Shown: piece by piece, positions 12,620-58,050 of the stretch | Layout of the letters: every line of letters starts with the position of its first letter | Numbering within the stretch: position 1 is the stretch's first letter | Assembly: GCA_965198225.1 (NCBI GenBank) | Contig: CBDAOY010000005.1 | Coordinates: 704,001-768,000 of the forward strand | Source: Terriglobia bacterium | GTDB taxonomy: Bacteria > Acidobacteriota > Terriglobia > 20CM-2-55-15 | Direction of reading: 5' to 3' | DNA length: 64,000 bases | Translations under genes and position numbers: made by a program | The notes under the pieces: model-generated | What the model saw: only the letters and a program-made list of their open reading frames with translations | What the model was told of the DNA's origin: nothing | Database searches by the model: none

Positions 12620-14804
12620 GTGCGCCAGGCATGGCGCGCAGCGCCATGAATTGGCGCTGGATAACCGGGGAGCGAAAGCGAACCGGGAAGTGACTAGGAG
12701 GTGAGAGTCCTCTGGGGGCCTTGATGACAGGAACCCTTAGCCGATGTGGCAACTGCGTCCGAGCAATCGGGGGTGGGAAGGAAGCCATAGGCAAAACTCT
12801 GGCCCGAGGCACACGAACCGCATAAGAGGCAGGCGTCAGGTGGGCGAAGAGGCCAACAGATCGGAAGCCCAATGTCATCCGGACCGGGCGTTTGTAGATG
12901 CGGCGGGTAGATGGAGTGAAAGTCACGTGCCTTACCCTGGGAGATCCGTTGTCTTGCTGGGAACAGCTAGAGTCGTCGAGAGGCGGCGCGATGGGGCGGC
13001 GGAAGTCAGCCACGGTCATAGTAGCCCGGCGGAGCCGGGGTGAAGGACCACACATGGAGAAGAGACCGACACGGAGCGTTCGATGCGAAACGGAGACGCA
13101 GACAAGAGGGCTGAGAAGCCGGAACCGAACCGGAAGGATAGCGGCGGAACCGTGACAGATACGGATGAGGGGCGTCAAACTCGCACGGCACGTCACGAGC
13201 AAGTCGGGATCGAGGAGGGAATGCTACTGGAGAAGGTGCTGGAACGGGAAAACGTTCTGGCCGCATACCGACGCGTCAAGGCCAATAGCGGGGCGGCGGG
13301 AATCGACGGGATGACCGTTGAGGACCTGATGCGGCGGAAGTCAGCCACCATAGTAGCCCGGCGGAGCCGGGGTGAAGGACCACACATGGAGAAGAGACCG
13401 ACACGGAGCGTTCGATGCGAAACGGAGACGCAGACAAGAGGGCTGAGAAGCCGGAACCGAACCGGAAGGATAGCGGCGGAACCGTGACAGATACGGATGA
13501 GGGGCGTCGCACGGCAGCAAGTCGGGATCGAGGAGGGAATGCTACTGCTGGAACGGGAAAACGTTCTGGCCGGACGCGGGAATCGACGGGATGACCGTTG
13601 AGGACCTGAGTCTGGACGCGAGTCAAGAACTGCTCGACGAGACGTACCGCCCCCAACCGGTGAGGAAAGTCGATATTCTGAAACCGGACGGAGGGATACG
13701 GACGCTGGGCATTCCGACCGTGATGGACCGGATGATTCAACAGGCTCTGCTTCAGGTTCTCCAACCCCTATGGGATCGGACGTTCTCGGAAGATAGCTAC
13801 GGCTACCGACCGGGACGAAGCGCCCAAAAGGCGGTGGTGCGTGCTCGGGAACACATTCGAGCCGGACATCGCTGGGTGGTGGACCTGGACATCGAGAAGT
13901 TCTTTGATCGCGTCAACCATGACGTGCTGATGGCACGCGTGGCGCGACGAATCAAAGACAAACGGGTGCTTCGATTGATTCGGCGCTATCTACAGGCCGG
14001 ACTGATGGAGGGCGGGCTGGTGTCGCCCCGGGCAGAAGGGACGCCGCAAGGCGGCCCCCTCTCGCCTCTGCTGTCGAACCTGTTGCTGGATGAACTGGAT
14101 CGGGAGTTGGGGAAACGTGGGCACCGCTTCGTTCGTTATGCCGACGATGTGAATGTGTACATTCGCTCCGAGGCAGCGGGTCAGCGGGTCATGGCATCGC
14201 TGGAATGTTTTCTGGACAGGAGACTCCGGCTGAAGGTGAACCGGGCCAAAAGCGCCGTGGCGCGGCCGTGGAAGCGAAAGTTCCTCGGGTACAGTTTCAC
14301 GGCGCATCGCGAGGCCAAACTGAAGGTTTCGGATTCGTCGTTAAAACGACTGAAAATGAGACTTCGGGAGATCACGCGAGCCGGGCGAGGCCGAAGCCTC
14401 GCTCGCACGATCGGAACACTCATTCCCATCATTCGGGGTTGGGTGGCTTACTATCGCTTGGCGGAGGTTCGAGGCAGCTTCGAGCGACTGGATCAGTGGT
14501 TGCGCCGCCGGCTGCGGTCGATCTTGTGGCAGCAGTGGAAGCGGAACCGAACACGATTCCGGGAACTCACTCGACGCGGTATTGCGACCGCTCGGGCTCG
14601 GACCTCGGTTTCCAACGGGCGCGGGCCTTGGTGGAATGCGGGCGCCAGCCATATGAATCAGGCTGTCCCCGCCTCTGCCTTCCGTCGCCTGGGTTTGCAA
14701 TCCTTCTCCGAGGTGCATTCCCGACTTCAATCTTTATGAACCGCCGTATACGGAACCGTACGTACGGTGGTGTGGGAGGCGGGCGTTAAGCCCGCCTACC
14801 CGAT
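12620..14804 (+). mobile_element. Group IIC (class C) intron inserted directly after the terminator
   Basis: 5' GTGCG at 12620; short domain V ACCGCCGTATACGGAACCGTACGTACGGTGG with CGC triad; domain VI ends CCCGAT at 14804. Confidence 0.92.
13083..14739 (+). pseudogene. ltrA: Intron reverse transcriptase/maturase, broken by an internal duplication
   Basis: GAAGIDG, RTLGIPTVMDR, GTPQGGPLSPLL, YADD; ORF split around 13330-13591. Confidence 0.85.
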
Positions 14805-39294: not shown

Positions 39295-39454
39295 GTAGAG
39301 TCGACGACTGGCGCGGTGGCGGTAGGCAAAGGGGGTAGCTGTTGCCGGTGGCTTTCGCCGATTCCGGTGCCTCACTCCTCGCCGTGGCTTCGTTTCCAGT
39401 CGCCGCTCATCGAACCGGACATGCGGATTTCCCGCATCCGGCTCTCGGACGAGA

Positions 39455-40795
39455 TCATGCCTTCGCCCACGGAAAGCTCGCCGTACGCGGCGCAAGATGC
39501 GTGAGCCCGTAATCGGACCAGAGCCGCTCGGACGGGAAGCGCACGTGTTTCCCGGTCCGCACCTTGTGCTTACGGCAGAGCCACTGGCGCGGCCGCCGGG
39601 TCGCGTGTTGATCAATCGCCTTGTAGGCCGGGCGGACCTGTCCCAGGATGAAATAGTTCGCCCAACCGATCAGCAACCGGTTGAGGCGTCCCACTACGAC
39701 TCCCGACGGCAGGAGCACGTGGCGCGGCGCGGTCAACTCGCTCACACGACGGCAGATGCTCTGGACGCTTTCCCGGCTCGGATGTGTGCCTATGTAGGCG
39801 GCACCCGTACCCGGCCGGTAGTTGCAACCGATCCGGTAGCCGAGGAACGTCATCGATTCCTCCGGCACCCGGCAGCAGCGGGTCTTCTCAACGTTCATCG
39901 CCAACTTCAGACGTTTTATCAGGGCTTCGACCGCCGCTAGCATCACCGCTGCCGGCGCGCGACCGAGAACCGCGAAGTCATCCGCGTAGTTGACGATTTC
40001 CGCCTTGAAGTGCCGGGCGTAGCCCAGCACCTTCCAGCCCAGAATGAAGCGCCGCATGTAGATGTTGCTGAACAGCGGCGAGATCGGAGACCCTTGCGGG
40101 GTCCCCTTCCGCTCGTGACGCGCCCGGTTCGTGCGGCGGCGACCGCCGCGCCCGTCGTCCTCTTCCACCGCCATCTCCAGCCACGCCTTGACCCAGCCCA
40201 ACAGCCGCCCGTCGCTCACACGCCGGGCGATGGACTTCATCAGGTCCGCGTGCGGAATCTGGCCGAAGTAGTCCGACAGGTCGGCGTCCACCACCTCCCG
40301 GTGGCCCGTCGTCAGCAGCCGATGCACGCGCCTGACTGCGTCATGCGCGTCTCGGCCCGGCCGGTACGCATACTGCTCCGGTTGCAGGTCGGCTTCGAAG
40401 ATCGGCGATAACACCAGCATCGCCGCCGTCTGCACCACCCGATCCCGGAGACACGGAATGCCCAACGGCCGGAACTTCCCTCGTTGCTTCTTCGGGATGA
40501 GAACCTGCCGAACCGCATGCGGCCGATAGGTCCCTTCCTTCAGGTCCCGCGCCAGTGCTCCCAGCCACCGGTCCACCCCGAACGCATCGATGTCCGCGAC
40601 CGTCTCGCCGTCCACCCCGGCCGCGCCGCCGTTGCGGCGCACGGCCTGCCAGGCGACTGCGAGCACGTCGTCGCGCCACACCTTGTCGCTCAGAGAGTAG
40701 AACCGGAAGCCCAGAGCTTCCTTCGCTTTCGCATGTAGCGCCGTCTGGAGTCGCTGAACTCTCTCCGAGGCTGTTAGGCTCTCGCCAGTCCTCAT
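39455..40795 (-). CDS. ltrA: Group II intron reverse transcriptase/maturase
   Basis: GAAGVDG, RPLGIP, GTPQGSPISPL, YADD; no endonuclease domain. Confidence 0.93.
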   Translation of the reverse strand: MRTGESLTASERVQRLQTALHAKAKEALGFRFYSLSDKVWRDDVLAVAWQAVRRNGGAAGVDGETVADIDAFGVDRWLGALARDLKEGTYRPHAVRQVLIPKKQRGKFRPLGIPCLRDRVVQTAAMLVLSPIFEADLQPEQYAYRPGRDAHDAVRRVHRLLTTGHREVVDADLSDYFGQIPHADLMKSIARRVSDGRLLGWVKAWLEMAVEEDDGRGGRRRTNRARHERKGTPQGSPISPLFSNIYMRRFILGWKVLGYARHFKAEIVNYADDFAVLGRAPAAVMLAAVEALIKRLKLAMNVEKTRCCRVPEESMTFLGYRIGCNYRPGTGAAYIGTHPSRESVQSICRRVSELTAPRHVLLPSGVVVGRLNRLLIGWANYFILGQVRPAYKAIDQHATRRPRQWLCRKHKVRTGKHVRFPSERLWSDYGLTHLAPRTASFPWAKA

Positions 40796-40972
40796 GTCCC
40801 TTCCTCCGTCATGCGCTGCTCTCGAACTGAGGTCCCTTCCCTCCACCGGCATTACCTGATGGGATGGACTCCTCCTTGATGACTGAGTCGGCATCGTAGT
40901 GCCAAAGTCATTGTGAAGCCTCGCGATGGTGCGGGCTAAACACGAGGACGTGTAAACAAGAAGGAGTCCGAG

Positions 40973-42007
40973 ATGAAGAGTAAAACGATCGCAGTGGATC
41001 TGGCAAAGAATGTTTTCGAGATTGGGATTTCCGACCGCCCCGGGCAGATGACGAAGACATACCGTTTAAGCCGGGGAAAGTTCTTGTCGTTTTTTGCGAA
41101 TCAGGAGCTGGCGACGGTCGTGATGGAAGCCTGCAGTGCCGCCCATCACTGGGGACGAGAGATCCAGAAACTGGGGCACACAGTGGTACTGATTTCACCG
41201 CAGTATGTCCGGCCCTACGTACCGAGGAGTAAGACGGATCGGGCGGATGTAAAAGGGTTGCTGGAGGCCCACCGGAATGCCGATATTCGGGCGGTACCCA
41301 TTAAGACGGTGGCGCAACAGCAACTCACCGCCCTGCACCGCATCCGGTCGACCTGGATGCGGACCCGGACGGCGCGCATCAACATGGTGCGGGGGCTGCT
41401 GGGAGAGTTTGGGCTCGTGCTGCCGACGGGAGCCCGGCGGCTGGTGCCCGGAGTCATGGGGTTGATCGAAGATGCGGATGTTGAGATCCCCATGACCGTA
41501 CGCGTCATGTTCTCGGAAGTGTGCACCGAAATCCGCGAGCTGGAGGCACGCATTCAATCGGTGGAGCGGGAGTTGGAAGCCCTGGCCCGTCAGATGCCCG
41601 AGGTGGCCCGTCTGCGCTCGATCCCTGGAATCGGGCTGTTGACTTCCACGGCGATGGTAGGTTTTGTCGGTGACCCCCGACGGTTTCGATCCTGTCGCCA
41701 CTTTGCCAGTTATCTGGGACTCACCCCGCGTGAGCGTTCGAGCGGAAACCGGCGTCGGCTGGGAGCGATCAGCAAACAAGGCAACGTCTACCTGCGGATG
41801 CTGCTCATACACGGTGGCCGCACTCTGCTATGGAGTGCGCATCGAAAAGGGGCGCAACCTTCGGCTCTGCAGAAATGGGGTCTCCGTCTCCACACACTCC
41901 GCGGGCACAACACGGCCACGGTTGCTTTAGCCAACAAACTGGCCCGCACGGTTTGGGCCGTCTGGACACAGGACACGGCGTACGAGGCTGACCGACGGGC
42001 GGCCTGA
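40973..42007 (+). CDS. IS110 family DEDD recombinase/transposase
   Basis: AVDLAK, VMEAC, KTDRAD, 'GLTPRERSSG', 'VALANKLAR'. Confidence 0.95.
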   Translation: MKSKTIAVDLAKNVFEIGISDRPGQMTKTYRLSRGKFLSFFANQELATVVMEACSAAHHWGREIQKLGHTVVLISPQYVRPYVPRSKTDRADVKGLLEAHRNADIRAVPIKTVAQQQLTALHRIRSTWMRTRTARINMVRGLLGEFGLVLPTGARRLVPGVMGLIEDADVEIPMTVRVMFSEVCTEIRELEARIQSVERELEALARQMPEVARLRSIPGIGLLTSTAMVGFVGDPRRFRSCRHFASYLGLTPRERSSGNRRRLGAISKQGNVYLRMLLIHGGRTLLWSAHRKGAQPSALQKWGLRLHTLRGHNTATVALANKLARTVWAVWTQDTAYEADRRAA

Positions 42008-42034
42008 CACCATGACTGTAGGAACATCCTTTCA

Positions 42035-42230
42035 GTAGACTGCGACGACGTTCGAGTTGATGACGTACCGGTCAGACCGGCGCGGGGAAACGCCGGAGAA
42101 GCCGTGGCCCCTGGAGGCCGTTTACCCGGTTGGCACCCCGCGCGCGAATTTCATCATGGCCCGGAACTCAAACGTTCCATTCGAGAGGCCGAAGATACGG
42201 ATGCAGTCGATCTGTCACTCAACTCGAAAA
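42035..42230 (+). ncRNA. Predicted bridge/seekRNA of element 1
   Basis: Structured region after the transposase with loops matching target and donor; RNA ends approximate. Confidence 0.75.
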
Positions 42231-42648
42231 TCAAATATCAGGATGCTGAAAAGAATCTTCGGGAAAAGGATATGGGACAGCTGCGCCTACTTGACAGGAG
42301 GAGTCCAGATACGGCTTTCTTGGTACTGCGGACCTCTCCGCCACCCTGTCGGCCCAACCTGACCCTCGCGGGCTGTCGGTTGGCGCGTGCCACGCCACCG
42401 GCAGGGCTTCCCGTGTTGCGTCCAATCCCCTCTTCCATACATGCCACCGCCCAATACCCCGGCGGAACCAGTCGGTGCTCGCGTCGCTCGCTTCCCGACC
42501 GCTGGCAGCCTTCCCCGTTTCAACGGCGGGTCGGCTTCCGCATTGTGCGTTTCGATGGAGTGGACGCCCCCGCTCCCCGGCGGCAGAATGGGCCGGGTCA
42601 GCAGAACGCACAAGGGGTGCGTTCAGAACACGAGAGAGGGAGGGATAC

Positions 42649-43695
42649 ATGGGCAAGGTGATCACCATCATCGGCATCGACATTTCAAAGAGGTACTTCC
42701 AACTGCATGGAGCCACGGCAAGCGGTGAGCCTGTGCTGCGCAGGCAGCTCACGCGCCCGAAGCTACTCGAGTTCCTCGCCAAGCAGCCTGTCTGCCGGGT
42801 CGTGATGGAAGTGTGCGGCAGCGCCCATCATTGGGGGCGGATGATCCAGGAGATCGGCCACGAGGTCCGCCTGATTCCCCCGATGTATGTGAAGCCGTAC
42901 GTCAAGAGGCAGAAGAATGACGCCAACGACGCGGGAGCGATCGTCGAGGCGGCCCAGCGGCCGACGATGCGGTTCGTGGCCGTGAAGACCGAGGAGGAGC
43001 AGGCACGATCGGTGGTGTTCCGGGCCCGGGCACTGCTGGTGCGCCAGCGGACACAGACGATCAACGCGCTGCGGGGTCATCTCGCGGAGTTTGGACTCGT
43101 CGCTCCGCTTGGGACCCACAACGTCGGGAGGCTGGAGGAGGTGTTCGCGGAGCGTGAAGAGTGTTTCCCGGCGCTGGTGCCTCCCGCCATACGCCGCCTC
43201 ATCGAGCGGACCCACGATCTGGATGCGGAGATCGATGAGCTGGACCGGGAGATCCGTCGCATCGTGAGGGAAGATGAGGCGCTCGGGCGCCTGATGACGA
43301 TTCCAGGGGTGGGAGAGCTCACGGCAATGGCGGTGCACGCGTTCGCGCCACCGATGGAGAGCTTCCGTAATGGACGTGACTTTGCGGCATGGGTCGGGAT
43401 CACGCCGCGTGAATCCTCGACGGGTGGCCGCCAACGGCTGGGGGGGATCACAAAGATGGGACAGCGCGACATCCGGAGGCTCCTGTACCTGGGAGCGACG
43501 GCGGTCATCTCGAGTGCCATCCGGCGGAGGGAGGTCACCGATCCCTGGCTTGGCCGGATGCTGGACGAAAAGCCGAGGAAGGTGGTTGCGGTGGCTCTGG
43601 CCAACAGGATGGCACGCATCATCTGGGCCATGACGGTGAAGGAGGAGAGCTACAGGGCACGGGGAATGACAAAGGCCGTTGCGCCTGCAGCGTAG
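42649..43695 (+). CDS. IS110 family DEDD recombinase/transposase
   Basis: GIDISK, VMEVCG, KNDANDA, 'GITPRESSTGG', 'VALANRMAR'. Confidence 0.95.
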   Translation: MGKVITIIGIDISKRYFQLHGATASGEPVLRRQLTRPKLLEFLAKQPVCRVVMEVCGSAHHWGRMIQEIGHEVRLIPPMYVKPYVKRQKNDANDAGAIVEAAQRPTMRFVAVKTEEEQARSVVFRARALLVRQRTQTINALRGHLAEFGLVAPLGTHNVGRLEEVFAEREECFPALVPPAIRRLIERTHDLDAEIDELDREIRRIVREDEALGRLMTIPGVGELTAMAVHAFAPPMESFRNGRDFAAWVGITPRESSTGGRQRLGGITKMGQRDIRRLLYLGATAVISSAIRRREVTDPWLGRMLDEKPRKVVAVALANRMARIIWAMTVKEESYRARGMTKAVAPAA

Positions 43696-43839
43696 GGTTG
43701 CGAGTCAGATCAGTGGAGCGAAGAAGGGTCGGCGAGATCAGAAACGCGGAGAAGAGAGAGGAAATCGTCCGGCTGGCGGCCTGGGCGGATGGACACGGGC
43801 CACGGAGGTTCCAACTGGAGAGTGCAAGCAGGACGTCGG

Positions 43840-44005
43840 ACAAGGTAGGGGCAAACGGTCGACAAGACGGGATCGGAAAACCCAGTAGGCCTCGAAGGGC
43901 CATCGAGCCCGTCGTTTCGATTTGGATCCGATCTCACGAACACCATACGGGCCCGCGGCCAGCAAGTGCCGCATCAAGAGGCCGCACATACGACCGTACC
44001 TGACC
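43840..44005 (+). ncRNA. Predicted bridge/seekRNA of element 2
   Basis: Loops AGGCCTCG/CGTTTCGA match the target; CCATACG/CACATACGA match the donor junction; RNA ends approximate. Confidence 0.78.
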
Positions 44006-44255
44006 TGAATGCCACCGATCCTCGGTTCGAAGTCAGGCTTGCCAACCAGGGGGGCGTCCACATACGAGGCCTGCTCGGCGTTTACTCGCGTTGTGGCCTG
44101 TGTGGTCGCTGAGCCGCCCGAGGCGGCCCTTTGTCATCGGAGTGCTTCAGACGATGTTGTTACCTCCACCATCCGCTCCGATTGCTACCGACTGGAGCGA
44201 CAGTTGCCGGGCGGGATTCGCACCCGCTGAGGATTGGCGCCTTCTCACGGCGCGG

Positions 44256-53635: not shown

Positions 53636-53949
53636 GGTTTTGATCTGTTGTTAAACTCTCACCGGAATATTCCGGTTTTTTCCGCTGCACATCCATTCCC
53701 GCGCCCAGGGCTCGGAGCTTCTCTCGCCTCCGGACCGCGTCTTTGAGGAGATTTCGTCTGGACCTCGGGGCGCTATCATCCTGGACCCGGAGCAATTGTG
53801 CGCACTACCCCGGCTTTTCAAGAGTCCTCACTTGAAGAGTCAAACCTGTTTCACGATGCCGGCACTTTGCCAGCTACCGGTGACCGCTGCTGCGGGAGAA
53901 TTCTGGCGGGAACCCCGGAGGGCTGGGCCGGATCCGTAAGGGCGGGAAT

Positions 53950-54325
53950 TCCTATCTACCGGATGTTCTTGTGGTCGGCGCACGGACACAGTATCACGTC
54001 GGCGACTCTGCTGAAGTGGAGGCTCCGCATTCATGAAGAATGCGGGCATAACCAGGCGGCGGTGGCGCTCGCCAACAAGCTGTGCCGACGATCTGCGCCG
54101 CCTGGAAGCGCGATTCCGACTATCCGGAGGCCAGACCGGATTTCGTTGCAGCAGGCCGCACTGACGTTCCTGTGCTGGCGTATCGGTCGGTCGGCGCGGG
54201 CACACGCCGACAAACTTCAGGCCCCTTCGGGGCTGTCATTTGACGCCTGGCGCCGCGTGCGACCTTGCATCGTGGCCTGAAATCCTACAATTCCACTGGA
54301 GCGGCTGGAGCTGCGGATGCAGTCG
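53950..54325 (+). pseudogene. Degraded IS110/IS1111 element: transposase C-terminus plus non-coding scaffold
   Basis: 'GHNQAAVALANKL'; 54178-54325 aligns with 42063-42209. Confidence 0.75.
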
Positions 54326-55704: not shown

Positions 55705-56167
55705 TATCAGCCAGTCTGACTTCCGACAGGCCTTCGGGTCTTCCTCGCGTTGTTGGCTTGTCCAACCCTACAAGCTCCGCTTGAACCTGACGGATCTCCC
55801 TTGTTCCCATGAAATCCTTGGTTGCATGCCGGCGGTACGAACCCCGGAAGGTTGCCATTGCGTGCCCTGCGATTCCGCCTTCCCCGGCGGTACGAACCCC
55901 GGAAGCACCCCAGGGCACGCCATTGCGTGCCCTGCGATTCCGCCTTCCCCCAGCGACAGGGTCGGCTACTTCAACCACGTTCGATCAACCACGTTCGATT
56001 TCGGGGCTATCTTTCCGTTCACTGGTGTTCCGGCCTACTCCCTCCCTGTCTACGCTTCGCAGTGTCCGTCACCGACCACCACGCAAGACTCGGTACGTGG
56101 CTGCCGGCTAGGCTCTGCCACGGCCGCCATCTCAGGCGACTGGATCTCATGCGCTTGCAAGGCGCAA

Positions 56168-58050
56168 CGCTCATCGAACCGGACATGCAGATTTCCCGCA
56201 TCCGGCTCTCGGACGAGATCATGCCTTCGCCCACGGAAAGCTCGCCGTACGCGGCGCAAGATGCGTGAGCCCGTAATCGGACCAGAGCCGCTCGACCGGG
56301 AAGCGCACGTGTTTCCCGGTCCGCACCTTGTGCTTACGGCAGAGCCACTGGCGCAGCCGCCGAGTTGCGTGCCGGTCAATCGCCTCGTAGGCCGGGCTGA
56401 CCTGTCCCAGGGTGAAGTAGTTCGCCCAACCGGTCAGCAACCGGTTGAGGCGTCCCACTACGACCTCCGGCGGCAGGAGCGCGTGACGCGGCGTGGTCAA
56501 CTCGCTCACACGACGGCAGATGCTCTGGACGCTTTCCCGGCTCGGACGTGTGCCTATGTAGGCGGCACCCGTGTCCGGCCGGTAGTTGCAACCAATCCGG
56601 TAGCCGAGGAACGTCATCGATTCCTCCGGCACCCGGCAGCAGCGGGTCTTCTCAACGTTCATCGCCAACTTCAGACGTTTTATCAGGGCTTCGACCGCCG
56701 CTAGCATTACCGCTGCCGGCGCGCGACCGAGAACCGCGAAGTCATCCGCGTAGTTGACGATTTCCGCCTTGAAGTGCCGGGCGTAGCCCAGCACCTTCCA
56801 GCCCAGAATGAAGCGCCGCATGTAGATGTTGCTGAACAGCGGCGAGATCGGAGACCCTTGCGGGGTCCCCTTCCGCTCGTGACGCGCCCGGTTCGTGCGG
56901 CGGCGACCGCCGCGCCCGTCGTCCTCTTCCACCGCCATCTCCAGCCACGCCTTGACCCAGCCCAACAGCCGCCCGTCGCTCACGCGCCGGGCGATGGACT
57001 TCATCAGGTCCGCGTGCGGAATCTGGCCGAAGTAGTCCGACAGGTCGGCGTCCACCACCTCCCGGTGGCCCGTCCTCAGCAGCCGATGCACGCGCCTGAT
57101 TGCGTCATGCGCGTCTCGGCCCGGCCGGTACGCATACTGCTCCGGTTGCAGGTCGGCTTCGAAGATCGGCGATAACACCAGCATCGCCGCCGTCTGCACC
57201 ACCCGATCCCGGAGACACGGAATGCCCAACGGCCGGAACTTCCCTCGTTGCTTCTTCGGGATGAGAACCTGCCGAACCGCATGCGGCCGATAGGTCCCTT
57301 CCTTCAGGTCCCGCGCCAGTGCTCCCAGCCACCGGTCTACCCCAAGCGCCTCGATGTCTCCGACCGTCTCGCCGTCCACCCCGGCCGCGCCGCCGTTGCG
57401 GCGCACGGCCTGCCAGGCGACTGCGAGCACGTCGTCGCGCCACACCTTGTCGCTCAGAGAGTAGAACCGGAAGCCCAGAGCTTCCTTCGCTTTCGCATGT
57501 AGCGCCGTCTGGAGTCGCTGAACTCTCTCCGAGGCTGTTAGGCTCTCGCCAGTCCTCATGTCCCTTCCTCCGTCATGCGCTGCTCTCGAACTGAGGTCCC
57601 TTCCCTCCACCGGCATTACCCGGCTTCCCTGGTACTGCGGACCTCTCCGCCACCCTGTCGGCCCAACCTGACCCTCGCGGGCTGTCGGTTGGCGCATGCC
57701 ACGCCACCGGCAGGGCTTCCCGTGTTGCGTCCATCCCCCCCTTCCACACGTGCCGCCGCTACTACCCCGGCGGAACCGGTCGGTGCTCGCGTCGCTCGCT
57801 TCCCGACCGCTGGCAGCCTTCCCCGTATTCCGGGCGGATCGGCTTCCGCATCGCTTCGTTACGAGGCCTGCGCAGCGTTCACATCGTTGCGGCCCGCGTG
57901 GTCGCTGAACCGCCCAGGGCGGCCCTTTGTCATCGGAGTGCTTCAGCCGATGTCGTTACCTCCATCGTCCGCTCCGACTGCTACCGGCTGGAGCGACAGT
58001 TGCCGGGCGGGGTTCGCACCCGCTGGGGAATGGCGCCTTTCACGGCGCAC
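56168..58050 (-). mobile_element. Group II intron A copy 2 (class F-like), domain VI displaced
   Basis: 5' GTGCG at 58050; domain V at about 56175-56208; near-identical to copy 1. Confidence 0.92.
56219..57559 (-). CDS. ltrA: Group II intron reverse transcriptase/maturase
   Basis: Same motifs as 39455-40795, including YADD. Confidence 0.93.
   Translation of the reverse strand: MRTGESLTASERVQRLQTALHAKAKEALGFRFYSLSDKVWRDDVLAVAWQAVRRNGGAAGVDGETVGDIEALGVDRWLGALARDLKEGTYRPHAVRQVLIPKKQRGKFRPLGIPCLRDRVVQTAAMLVLSPIFEADLQPEQYAYRPGRDAHDAIRRVHRLLRTGHREVVDADLSDYFGQIPHADLMKSIARRVSDGRLLGWVKAWLEMAVEEDDGRGGRRRTNRARHERKGTPQGSPISPLFSNIYMRRFILGWKVLGYARHFKAEIVNYADDFAVLGRAPAAVMLAAVEALIKRLKLAMNVEKTRCCRVPEESMTFLGYRIGCNYRPDTGAAYIGTRPSRESVQSICRRVSELTTPRHALLPPEVVVGRLNRLLTGWANYFTLGQVSPAYEAIDRHATRRLRQWLCRKHKVRTGKHVRFPVERLWSDYGLTHLAPRTASFPWAKA

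Follow-up and report, generated by a model that had tools for sequence, protein, structure and literature searches.

What places an insertion sequence (IS) at one exact position of a group II intron, and what reads that position? The question is raised by element 2, a 1512-bp IS1111-group insertion sequence of the IS110 family at positions 42553-44064 of a 64,000-nucleotide stretch of a Terriglobia bacterium genome (GenBank assembly GCA_965198225.1, contig CBDAOY010000005.1, forward strand; this whole stretch is called the window below, and its numbering is used throughout). We found that the flanks of related elements are matched by short segments at fixed places in a conserved, predicted two-loop RNA scaffold downstream of the recombinase gene, and that these segments change as the flanks change. 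With a probability of about 0.9, in our estimate, element 2 moves by RNA-guided recombination in which a bridge RNA, or seekRNA, reads the intron site.

Element 2 and its site in a group II intron

The insertion was defined by comparing occupied with empty intron copies. The left junction of element 2 reads GCGTTT-CG-ATGGAG and the right junction CACATA-CG-AGGCCT, and uninterrupted copies of the intron read GCGTTTCGAGGCCT across the site. Because the empty copies lack precisely this stretch, element 2 is an insertion of exactly 1512 bp at GCGTTT-CG-AGGCCT, and the CG core is the only duplication, CGA being ambiguous. The left core copy (42553-42554) marks the junction of intron and left end, and the right copy (44065-44066) is followed by the intron's right target, AGGCCT. 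The joint expected of an empty site, from 42552 to 44065 and skipping 1512, was present in contigs from three public runs. There are no terminal inverted repeats and no target duplication beyond the short core, as in site-specific insertion by the IS110 family. The predicted insertion target is CGTTTCGAGGCCT; the target had been named in the first-pass annotation of this DNA, and its strings and coordinates were all verified in the window.

The host is intron copy 1, on the minus strand, with an Rfam D1D4-4 match at 44086-44229, a reverse transcriptase/maturase open reading frame at 39455-40894 and D5/D6 at 39295-39446. Aligned with copy 2 (~55884-58050), it is split twice, by element 1 (40857-42311) and by element 2 (~42553-44064). 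An intron segment remains between both insertions (42312-42552, minus strand), and the 5' part of the intron, including the D1D4-4 match, lies at 44067-44253 on the minus strand. The site of element 2 is ~188 nt from the intron 5' GUGCG (58050-58046 in copy 2) and adjoins a conserved AGGCC/GGCCU stem.

The recombinase gene (42649-43695, plus strand) encodes an IS110-family protein of 348 amino acids (aa) with a DEDD/RuvC-like N-terminal domain and a Transposase_20 C-terminal domain. Both Pfam matches were past cutoff (PF01548, DEDD_Tnp_IS110, 56.8 bits; PF02371, Transposase_20, 77.4 bits), and the match to NCBIfam NF033542, "IS110 family RNA-guided transposase," scored 319.8 bits against a cutoff of 140. 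Sequence comparison gave the ISCro4 and IS621 transposases as its solved relatives in the Protein Data Bank, and the C-terminal domain matches the IS621 transposase with an E value of 5.5e-11. The traits given for IS1111 in PMC11187229 and PMC11208160 are subterminal repeats of 7-17 bp, a noncoding region downstream of tnp, a transposase of 330-350 aa and the motif GL-P----S(t)G. In element 2 the motif GITPRESSTG (G-I-x-P-x4-T-G, I replacing L) fits, as does the length of the protein. An inverted-repeat scan found 12-bp subterminal repeats, GTGGACGCCCCC at 42560-42571 in a short left end that starts ATGGAG (42555-42648, plus strand), with its complement GGGGGCGTCCAC at 44050-44061; homologue ends placed this right repeat, together with the terminal CACATA, at 44050-44064 (plus strand). 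Extensions of 5 nt on the left and 3 nt on the right separate the repeats from the core, and 369 nt of noncoding DNA lie downstream of the gene (43696-44064) against 96 nt upstream. By this architecture and motif, rather than by a tree, element 2 is classed as an IS1111-group member of the IS110 family, apparently intact, which bears out its earlier labeling as an IS1111-type element.

Guides that change with the flanks of related elements

The noncoding region contains a predicted bridge RNA/seekRNA scaffold (43857-44005, plus strand, as are all of its parts), delineated by folds and RNAalifold. Its outer stem, GGTC (43857-43860) with GACC (44002-44005), was judged by eye in the homologue alignment and stands outside the pair counts given below; it encloses a target-binding arm and a donor hairpin. 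The arm (43869-43935), placed by RNAalifold and pair counts, comprises helices P1 (43869-43877/43927-43935) and P2 (43882-43885/43922-43925), an internal loop and an inner hairpin (43897-43910). Within the loop, AGGCCTCG (43887-43894) and CGTTTCGA (43913-43920) flank GGGC (43897-43900)/GCCC (43907-43910). The former is the 5' target guide, AGGCCU-CG, complementary to the top strand of core and right target, CG-AGGCCT; it covaries with the right flanks. The latter holds the 3' target guide, CGUUU-CG (43913-43919), identical in sense to the left target and core and therefore complementary to the bottom strand; it covaries with the left flanks. The guide strings and the hairpin are where the first-pass annotation had put them, except that the last A of CGTTTCGA belongs to the scaffold and is invariant in every homologue, so that the 3' guide proper is CGTTT plus CG. 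In a noncoding region of 345 nt the counts expected by chance are 0.009 for AGGCCTCG, 0.002 for CGTTTCGA and 0.001 for CACATACGA, the donor segment described below. As in the reported IS1111 seekRNAs, the segment that matches the top strand precedes, in the 5' to 3' direction, the one that matches the bottom strand.

The same annotation had proposed a survey of homologue insertion sites, and this survey is what carries the RNA-guided reading. We found 68 related loci with 32-88% identity in the best tblastn segment, of which 23 share the ends CG-ATGGAGTGGACGCC...GGCGTCCACATA-CG and differ in their flanks. Loop segments were taken by scaffold position alone from 22 elements (45-88% protein identity), giving 19 unique guide/target combinations; locus L008, with an interrupted scaffold, and L016, with a cut left flank, were left out. 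The guides matched their own flanks at 186 of 247 positions, compared with an average of 4.26 of 13 for noncognate pairs, and none of 10,000 permutations reached the observed total. Positions -1 to -5 on the left matched in 14-18 of the 19 combinations and positions +1 to +6 on the right in 13-17. Since matching falls off at -6 and +7 (6 and 7 of 19, respectively), the site read is 5 bp, CG and 6 bp. A close relative, L014:3926 (87% protein identity), has guides for CATTG-CG-TAGGCT and a right junction core of GG instead of CG.

The frame that holds the guides is conserved. The last ~200 nt align well among 18 homologous elements, for which RNAalifold returned an arm with a large internal loop and then a second hairpin. 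Scaffold pairing in these sequences is intact in 97.9% of cells, against 24-48% when the partners are slid by 1-3 columns, and in five pairs both bases have changed, compared with 0-2 for slid partners. The inner hairpin is itself covarying (GGGC/GCCC, GAGC/GCTC and GTGC/GCAC). From these alignments we conclude that the noncoding region carries a conserved scaffold with the two loops predicted for a bridge RNA or seekRNA.

The second hairpin forms the donor arm (GGCCCGCGGC ... GCCGC ... GGCCG, 43950-43984), whose helices 4 and 5 are 95-100% paired with one both-sides change each. It is followed by the 3' donor guide, CACAUA-CG-A (CACATACGA, 43985-43993), identical to the right end plus core. 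This segment tracks the right end over five types (CACATA, CATAGA, CAGATA, CACACC and CACACA): the position holds AUAGA-CG in the element nested in L008 (end CATAGA), AGAUA-CG in element 1 (end CAGATA), and ACACC or ACACA in a more distant clade (ends CACACC or CACACA). On the other side of the hairpin, CCAU-A-CG (43943-43949) is a plausible 5' donor guide, complementary to the left-end CG-ATGG with one bulged A and kept in the homologues with A or G as the bulge base and CG or UG as the core. Because every left end begins ATGG, it yields no informative covariation. Discontiguous RDG-RD pairing of a donor guide has been described for IS621 (PMC11208160). An alternative pairing of CCAUACG with a downstream CCGUA fits the window and fails, by eye, in homologues such as L020. 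The donor-loop claim of the first-pass annotation is thus sustained for CACATACGA, which matches the right end and covaries, and less so for CCATACG, a short match of CCAT, a bulged A and CG.

From these features we propose the following mechanism. An RNA of ~150 nt would be encoded in the 3' noncoding region at about 43857-44005. In its target loop, AGGCCU-CG would pair with the top strand of the core and right target and CGUUU-CG with the bottom strand of the left target and core, the two guides jointly specifying the 13-bp site CGTTT-CG-AGGCCT. The donor arm would pair CACAUA-CG with the right end and, with a bulge, CCAU(A)CG with the left end, and would so hold the abutted ends of the excised circle. 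A promoter made by that junction, TTGCCA-N18-TACGAT, could drive the recombinase gene and the RNA downstream of it. From homology to ISEc11, ISKpn4 and IS621, we infer that the RNA is produced and bound by the recombinase, that the element circularizes and that it is currently active.

The junction promoter, predicted in the first-pass annotation, was reproduced by joining the ends in silico; it matches the sigma-70 consensus at 9 of 12 positions, with the -10 box lying across the junction. Its -35 half, TTGCCA, is at 44039-44044 (plus strand), and by a junction scan the promoter would form solely at the circle junction; a scan of integrated element 2 found no sigma-70-like promoter. Junction promoters are documented for the IS110/IS1111 family (PMC11187229). 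In run X2, a joint from 43962 to 42553 with extra letters was considered as a circle and rejected, as it is a left end inserted after ...AAGAGGC, nested as in L008.

Copies, empty sites and rival explanations

The genome holds three copies of element 2 (100%, 99.5% and 98.3% identity, the last one 5'-truncated), all at the intron site. They differ at 8 and 20 positions (0.5% and 1.7%), none within the guides. The 13-mer CGTTT-CG-AGGCCT occurs three further times in 6.4 Mb, against a chance expectation of 0.27, each time as an empty intron site. Because the 13-mer is confined in this genome to a motif of the multicopy intron, one that is conserved throughout the intron family, element 2 lands in another mobile element and not in host genes. 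All four occupancy states are found among the intron copies of this one genome (elements 1 and 2, 2 only, 1 only and neither). A Longimicrobiales genome (G100) has two copies of an element that is 82% identical in DNA, inserted at the corresponding site of this intron family. A tblastn search with both recombinases detected no IS in the 30 intron loci of relatives to which it was applied. In G006, G032 and G058 the intron match begins at the insertion point; these were considered as possible IS junctions and not accepted, tblastn finding no IS there.

The same intron contains another IS1111-type element, element 1 (40857-42311, plus strand; delimited by alignment, Pfam and guides), which provides an internal check on the architecture. 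The guides of element 1, GAGAAGC-CG and TTTACC-CG, agree with its own site, TTACC-CG-GCTTC; the donor segments read CAU-CA and AGAUA-CG. Its recombinase is 37% identical to that of element 2. Thus, of the earlier proposal that a divergent recombinase with an independent guide had come to the same host element, the divergence and the separate guides and sites held good; element 1, however, is not intron-specific. Its four copies encode identical proteins, two lying in the intron and two at look-alike sites, TTACC-YG-G(G)CTCCTGG (G000 C4:355377-356816 and C5:838647-840100). The core at the left junction of element 1 is TG, and both its right core and the empty site have CG, so that its core copies differ. 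Elsewhere in the window, positions 53857-54088 hold a short fragment that resembles the recombinase of element 1 towards its C terminus (residues 241-325, ~55% identity), and a further IS110-family gene, 74% identical to that recombinase, is at G000 C4:92427-93458.

Several results weigh against RNA-guided reading of the site. Rfam 15 returned no family for the noncoding region (gathering score over the window; E of ≤1 on 43650-44100). Its minimum free energy is no better than that of shuffles (z of -0.2 to -0.8), and because single-sequence folding energy is unexceptional the RNA case rests on covariation. In contigs of one RNA library, from a run that holds 5% of sampled words and in which DNA carry-over is possible, the intron flanks and, by a low-depth contig, 43668-43844 were covered, and 43883-44024, containing the guide loops, was uncovered. 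No circle-junction contig was found in four public runs, contigs being prone to drop rare forms, and the junction promoter criteria hold in just 5 of 17 unique homologue end pairs, the rest keeping TTGC. The 5' donor guide pairs over CCAT and CG with its bulge only, and left-end positions 5 and 6 are not tracked across clades. Four combinations match their flanks poorly (L026 at 4 of 13 positions, L027 and L071 at 7 and L021 at 9), which means that some natural copies sit at noncognate or rearranged sites. Finally, occupied copies share identical intron flanks (100% over 240 and 189 bp), and because empty copies match equally well, this identity is uninformative on independent insertion.

Two other explanations of the site draw on the same results. 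If the recombinase protein read the target directly, the matches in the noncoding region would be incidental or remnants of target DNA, and both the uncovered guide loops in the RNA library and the ordinary folding energy would be as expected. Such a reading is extremely improbable, because the guides keep their places in a conserved scaffold and, across 19 combinations, follow the flanks in sequence, with protein and ends remaining similar; L014 and L008 have different guides and a different target at 87-88% protein identity, and for IS1111 and IS110 relatives a noncoding RNA has been found by experiment to be required and programmable (PMC11187229; PMC11208160). Alternatively, the three copies may have spread within an IS-carrying intron, by duplication, retrohoming or intron recombination, and the shared site would then be uninformative on targeting. 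The intron is itself multicopy and mobile, and its flanks at occupied sites are identical, as this would predict; that identity, however, is without information given the empty copies, and the coexistence of all four occupancy states, the 0.5% and 1.7% differences between element 2 copies and the diverged relative at the same intron site in G100 speak against it. Spread with the intron would also leave unexplained the match of guide to site and the covariation among homologues, and we consider it improbable. RNA-guided insertion is the reading that we retain.

A separate question is why some intron copies are empty. As had been noted in the first-pass annotation, copy 2 reads CGTTACGA (57857-57864) and is uninterrupted; comparison of copies gives a variant site, CGTTA-CG-AGGCCT (57857-57870, plus strand), with a guide mismatch at left -1, beside the core. 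At this position T (A in the intron RNA) is found in every one of 21 covering loci from relatives and in each of 9 empty sites of two further genomes. Only in this genome is the base A, in two copies, and C, in one, and this is the sole difference in 121 nt between these copies, termed type B. Occupancy here is 3 of 6 perfect sites and 0 of 3 one-mismatch sites (one-sided Fisher P = 0.24). In G100 both perfect sites are occupied (L113 and L114) and all four one-mismatch sites are empty (L106, L108, L111 and L116), three having T at left -5 and one T at right +4. Pooled occupancy is 5 of 8 perfect and 0 of 7 one-mismatch sites; P is 0.028 for 5/8 versus 0/6 and, by hand calculation with the seventh site, 56/3003 = 0.019, values that come from intron copies that are not independent. 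The pattern is suggestive, fitting escape or survivorship, with selection unproven. A place for the variant base as N in a GNRA tetraloop was also considered; inspection revealed no closing stem, and the base is unpaired in the RNAalifold structure.

Of the suggestion that copy 2 is an escape variant, it stands that its base is derived and its site unoccupied; small numbers, three perfect sites that are also empty and a diverged sub-lineage tell against it. The TTACG or TTCCG state of copy 2 and its two sisters is probably a neutral marker of a diverged intron subfamily that has not yet been hit. Types A and B differ widely (~83% identity over the 121 nt), occupancy is far from saturated even at perfect sites, and the counts within this genome give little separation by the Fisher test. 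A neutral origin is harder to reconcile with the constancy of T in relatives and in the further genomes, with two different substitutions at this one position among otherwise identical type-B copies, with agreement of guide and target at left -1 in 18 of 19 natural combinations, with the clean division of sites in G100 and with the poor tolerance of single mismatches by IS621 (PMC11208160). More tentatively, and with less weight than the neutral origin, there may be a sequence arms race between intron and IS. The guide would read a conserved, presumably functional domain I motif; one-base changes would spare introns (left -1 here, twice independently, T>A and T>C, and -5 or +4 in G100), and perfect copies would be occupied. 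Relatives, for their part, would redirect their guides to further mobile elements, among them one another's ends and donor loop, as in L008. If this were so, nature would have supplied evidence that a single mismatch lets a target escape an RNA-guided recombinase and that mobile elements wage war on each other through their guides.

Other observations concern the introns themselves. The match of copy 2 to copy 1 ends at 56168 and is followed by another intron piece (Rfam D1D4-6, 55889-56132, minus strand); copy 2 is without its own D5/D6, and the arrangement may be one of intron in intron. A type-B copy at G000 C6:408308-410066 carries a 1.76-kb insertion between the equivalents of window positions 57633 and 57702; tblastn shows no likeness of this insertion to IS110. 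On the plus strand, 12757-14804 is occupied by a third group II intron, unrelated to the others, with Rfam D1D4-3, D1D4-1 and D5/D6 matches.

Relatives in other mobile DNA and known systems

Other members of the group were also found in or beside mobile DNA. Locus L008:2407-5315 consists of two nested IS1111-type elements that apparently target each other. The outer one (88% protein identity to element 2) has guides for GGCAT-CG-CAATG, a sequence that the inner family carries in its left end. The inner one interrupts the outer element at GAGGC-CG-CACATA, where the latter has its 3' donor-guide region, and carries guides that match this position. In the same genome, L019 and L038 have the outer type beside a left-end-like flank, and a contig of run X2 has the same kind of joint. 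In a Paracoccaceae metagenome-assembled genome, four copies of a 63-65% identical relative (L017, L021, L022 and L025) lie at GAAAG-CG-GCTGTTC within a repeat of ~2.5 kb (flanks of ~1.7 kb left and 0.77 kb right) whose product is an IS4-like DDE transposase, DruA-like in its N-terminal region. The plasmid relatives of element 2 that were found have <60% protein identity.

The locus provides a natural test set in which one group II intron contains two diverged IS1111-type elements, each with guides of its own, occupied and empty sites coexist in one genome, one-mismatch sites are never occupied and relatives at 85-88% protein identity have guides rewritten to other mobile elements. It supports the view that these IS persist by parasitizing conserved sequences of other mobile DNA. 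Its natural guide/target pairs, built on a CG core and a 5+2+6 site, could serve the engineering of IS1111-type recombinases. No model of Rfam 15 detects the RNA region. In the literature searched, no title or abstract reporting insertion of an IS110 or IS1111 element into a group II intron was found; the supplements of PMC11187229 and PMC11208160 could hold such a target or a close relative of element 2.

The mechanism, an RNA-guided DEDD recombinase with a bridge RNA or seekRNA, has been known since 2024, and element 2 is a further clear example rather than something new in kind. It resembles the seekRNA elements ISEc11, ISPa11, ISKpn4 and ISPst6 (Siddiquee et al. 2024, PMC11187229) in its DEDD transposase of ~340 aa, its subterminal repeats and long downstream noncoding region, its top-strand match 5' of the bottom-strand match, its predicted junction promoter and the lack of a real target duplication. 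Compared by features alone, it differs from them in its target, a group II intron motif, theirs being a short chromosomal site, attC or a Tn21 end. With IS621 (Durrant et al. 2024, PMC11208160; structures 8WT6-9) it shares a two-loop RNA, predicted in element 2, whose target and donor guides would read both strands around a 2-nt core; the low mismatch tolerance and the one discontiguous donor guide of IS621 have their counterparts in the questions discussed above. IS621 has a CT core and its RNA is encoded in the left end, ahead of the gene; element 2, by contrast, has its RNA region downstream, the guide order reversed, a CG core and long subterminal repeats. Its strategy is that of elements that use a conserved site of a multicopy element, namely ISEc21 (IS3-family transposase genes; PMC11187229), IS4321/IS5075 (Tn21 inverted repeats), the IS1111-attC group and the IS that target REP sequences; it is set apart from all of these by its host, a group II intron.

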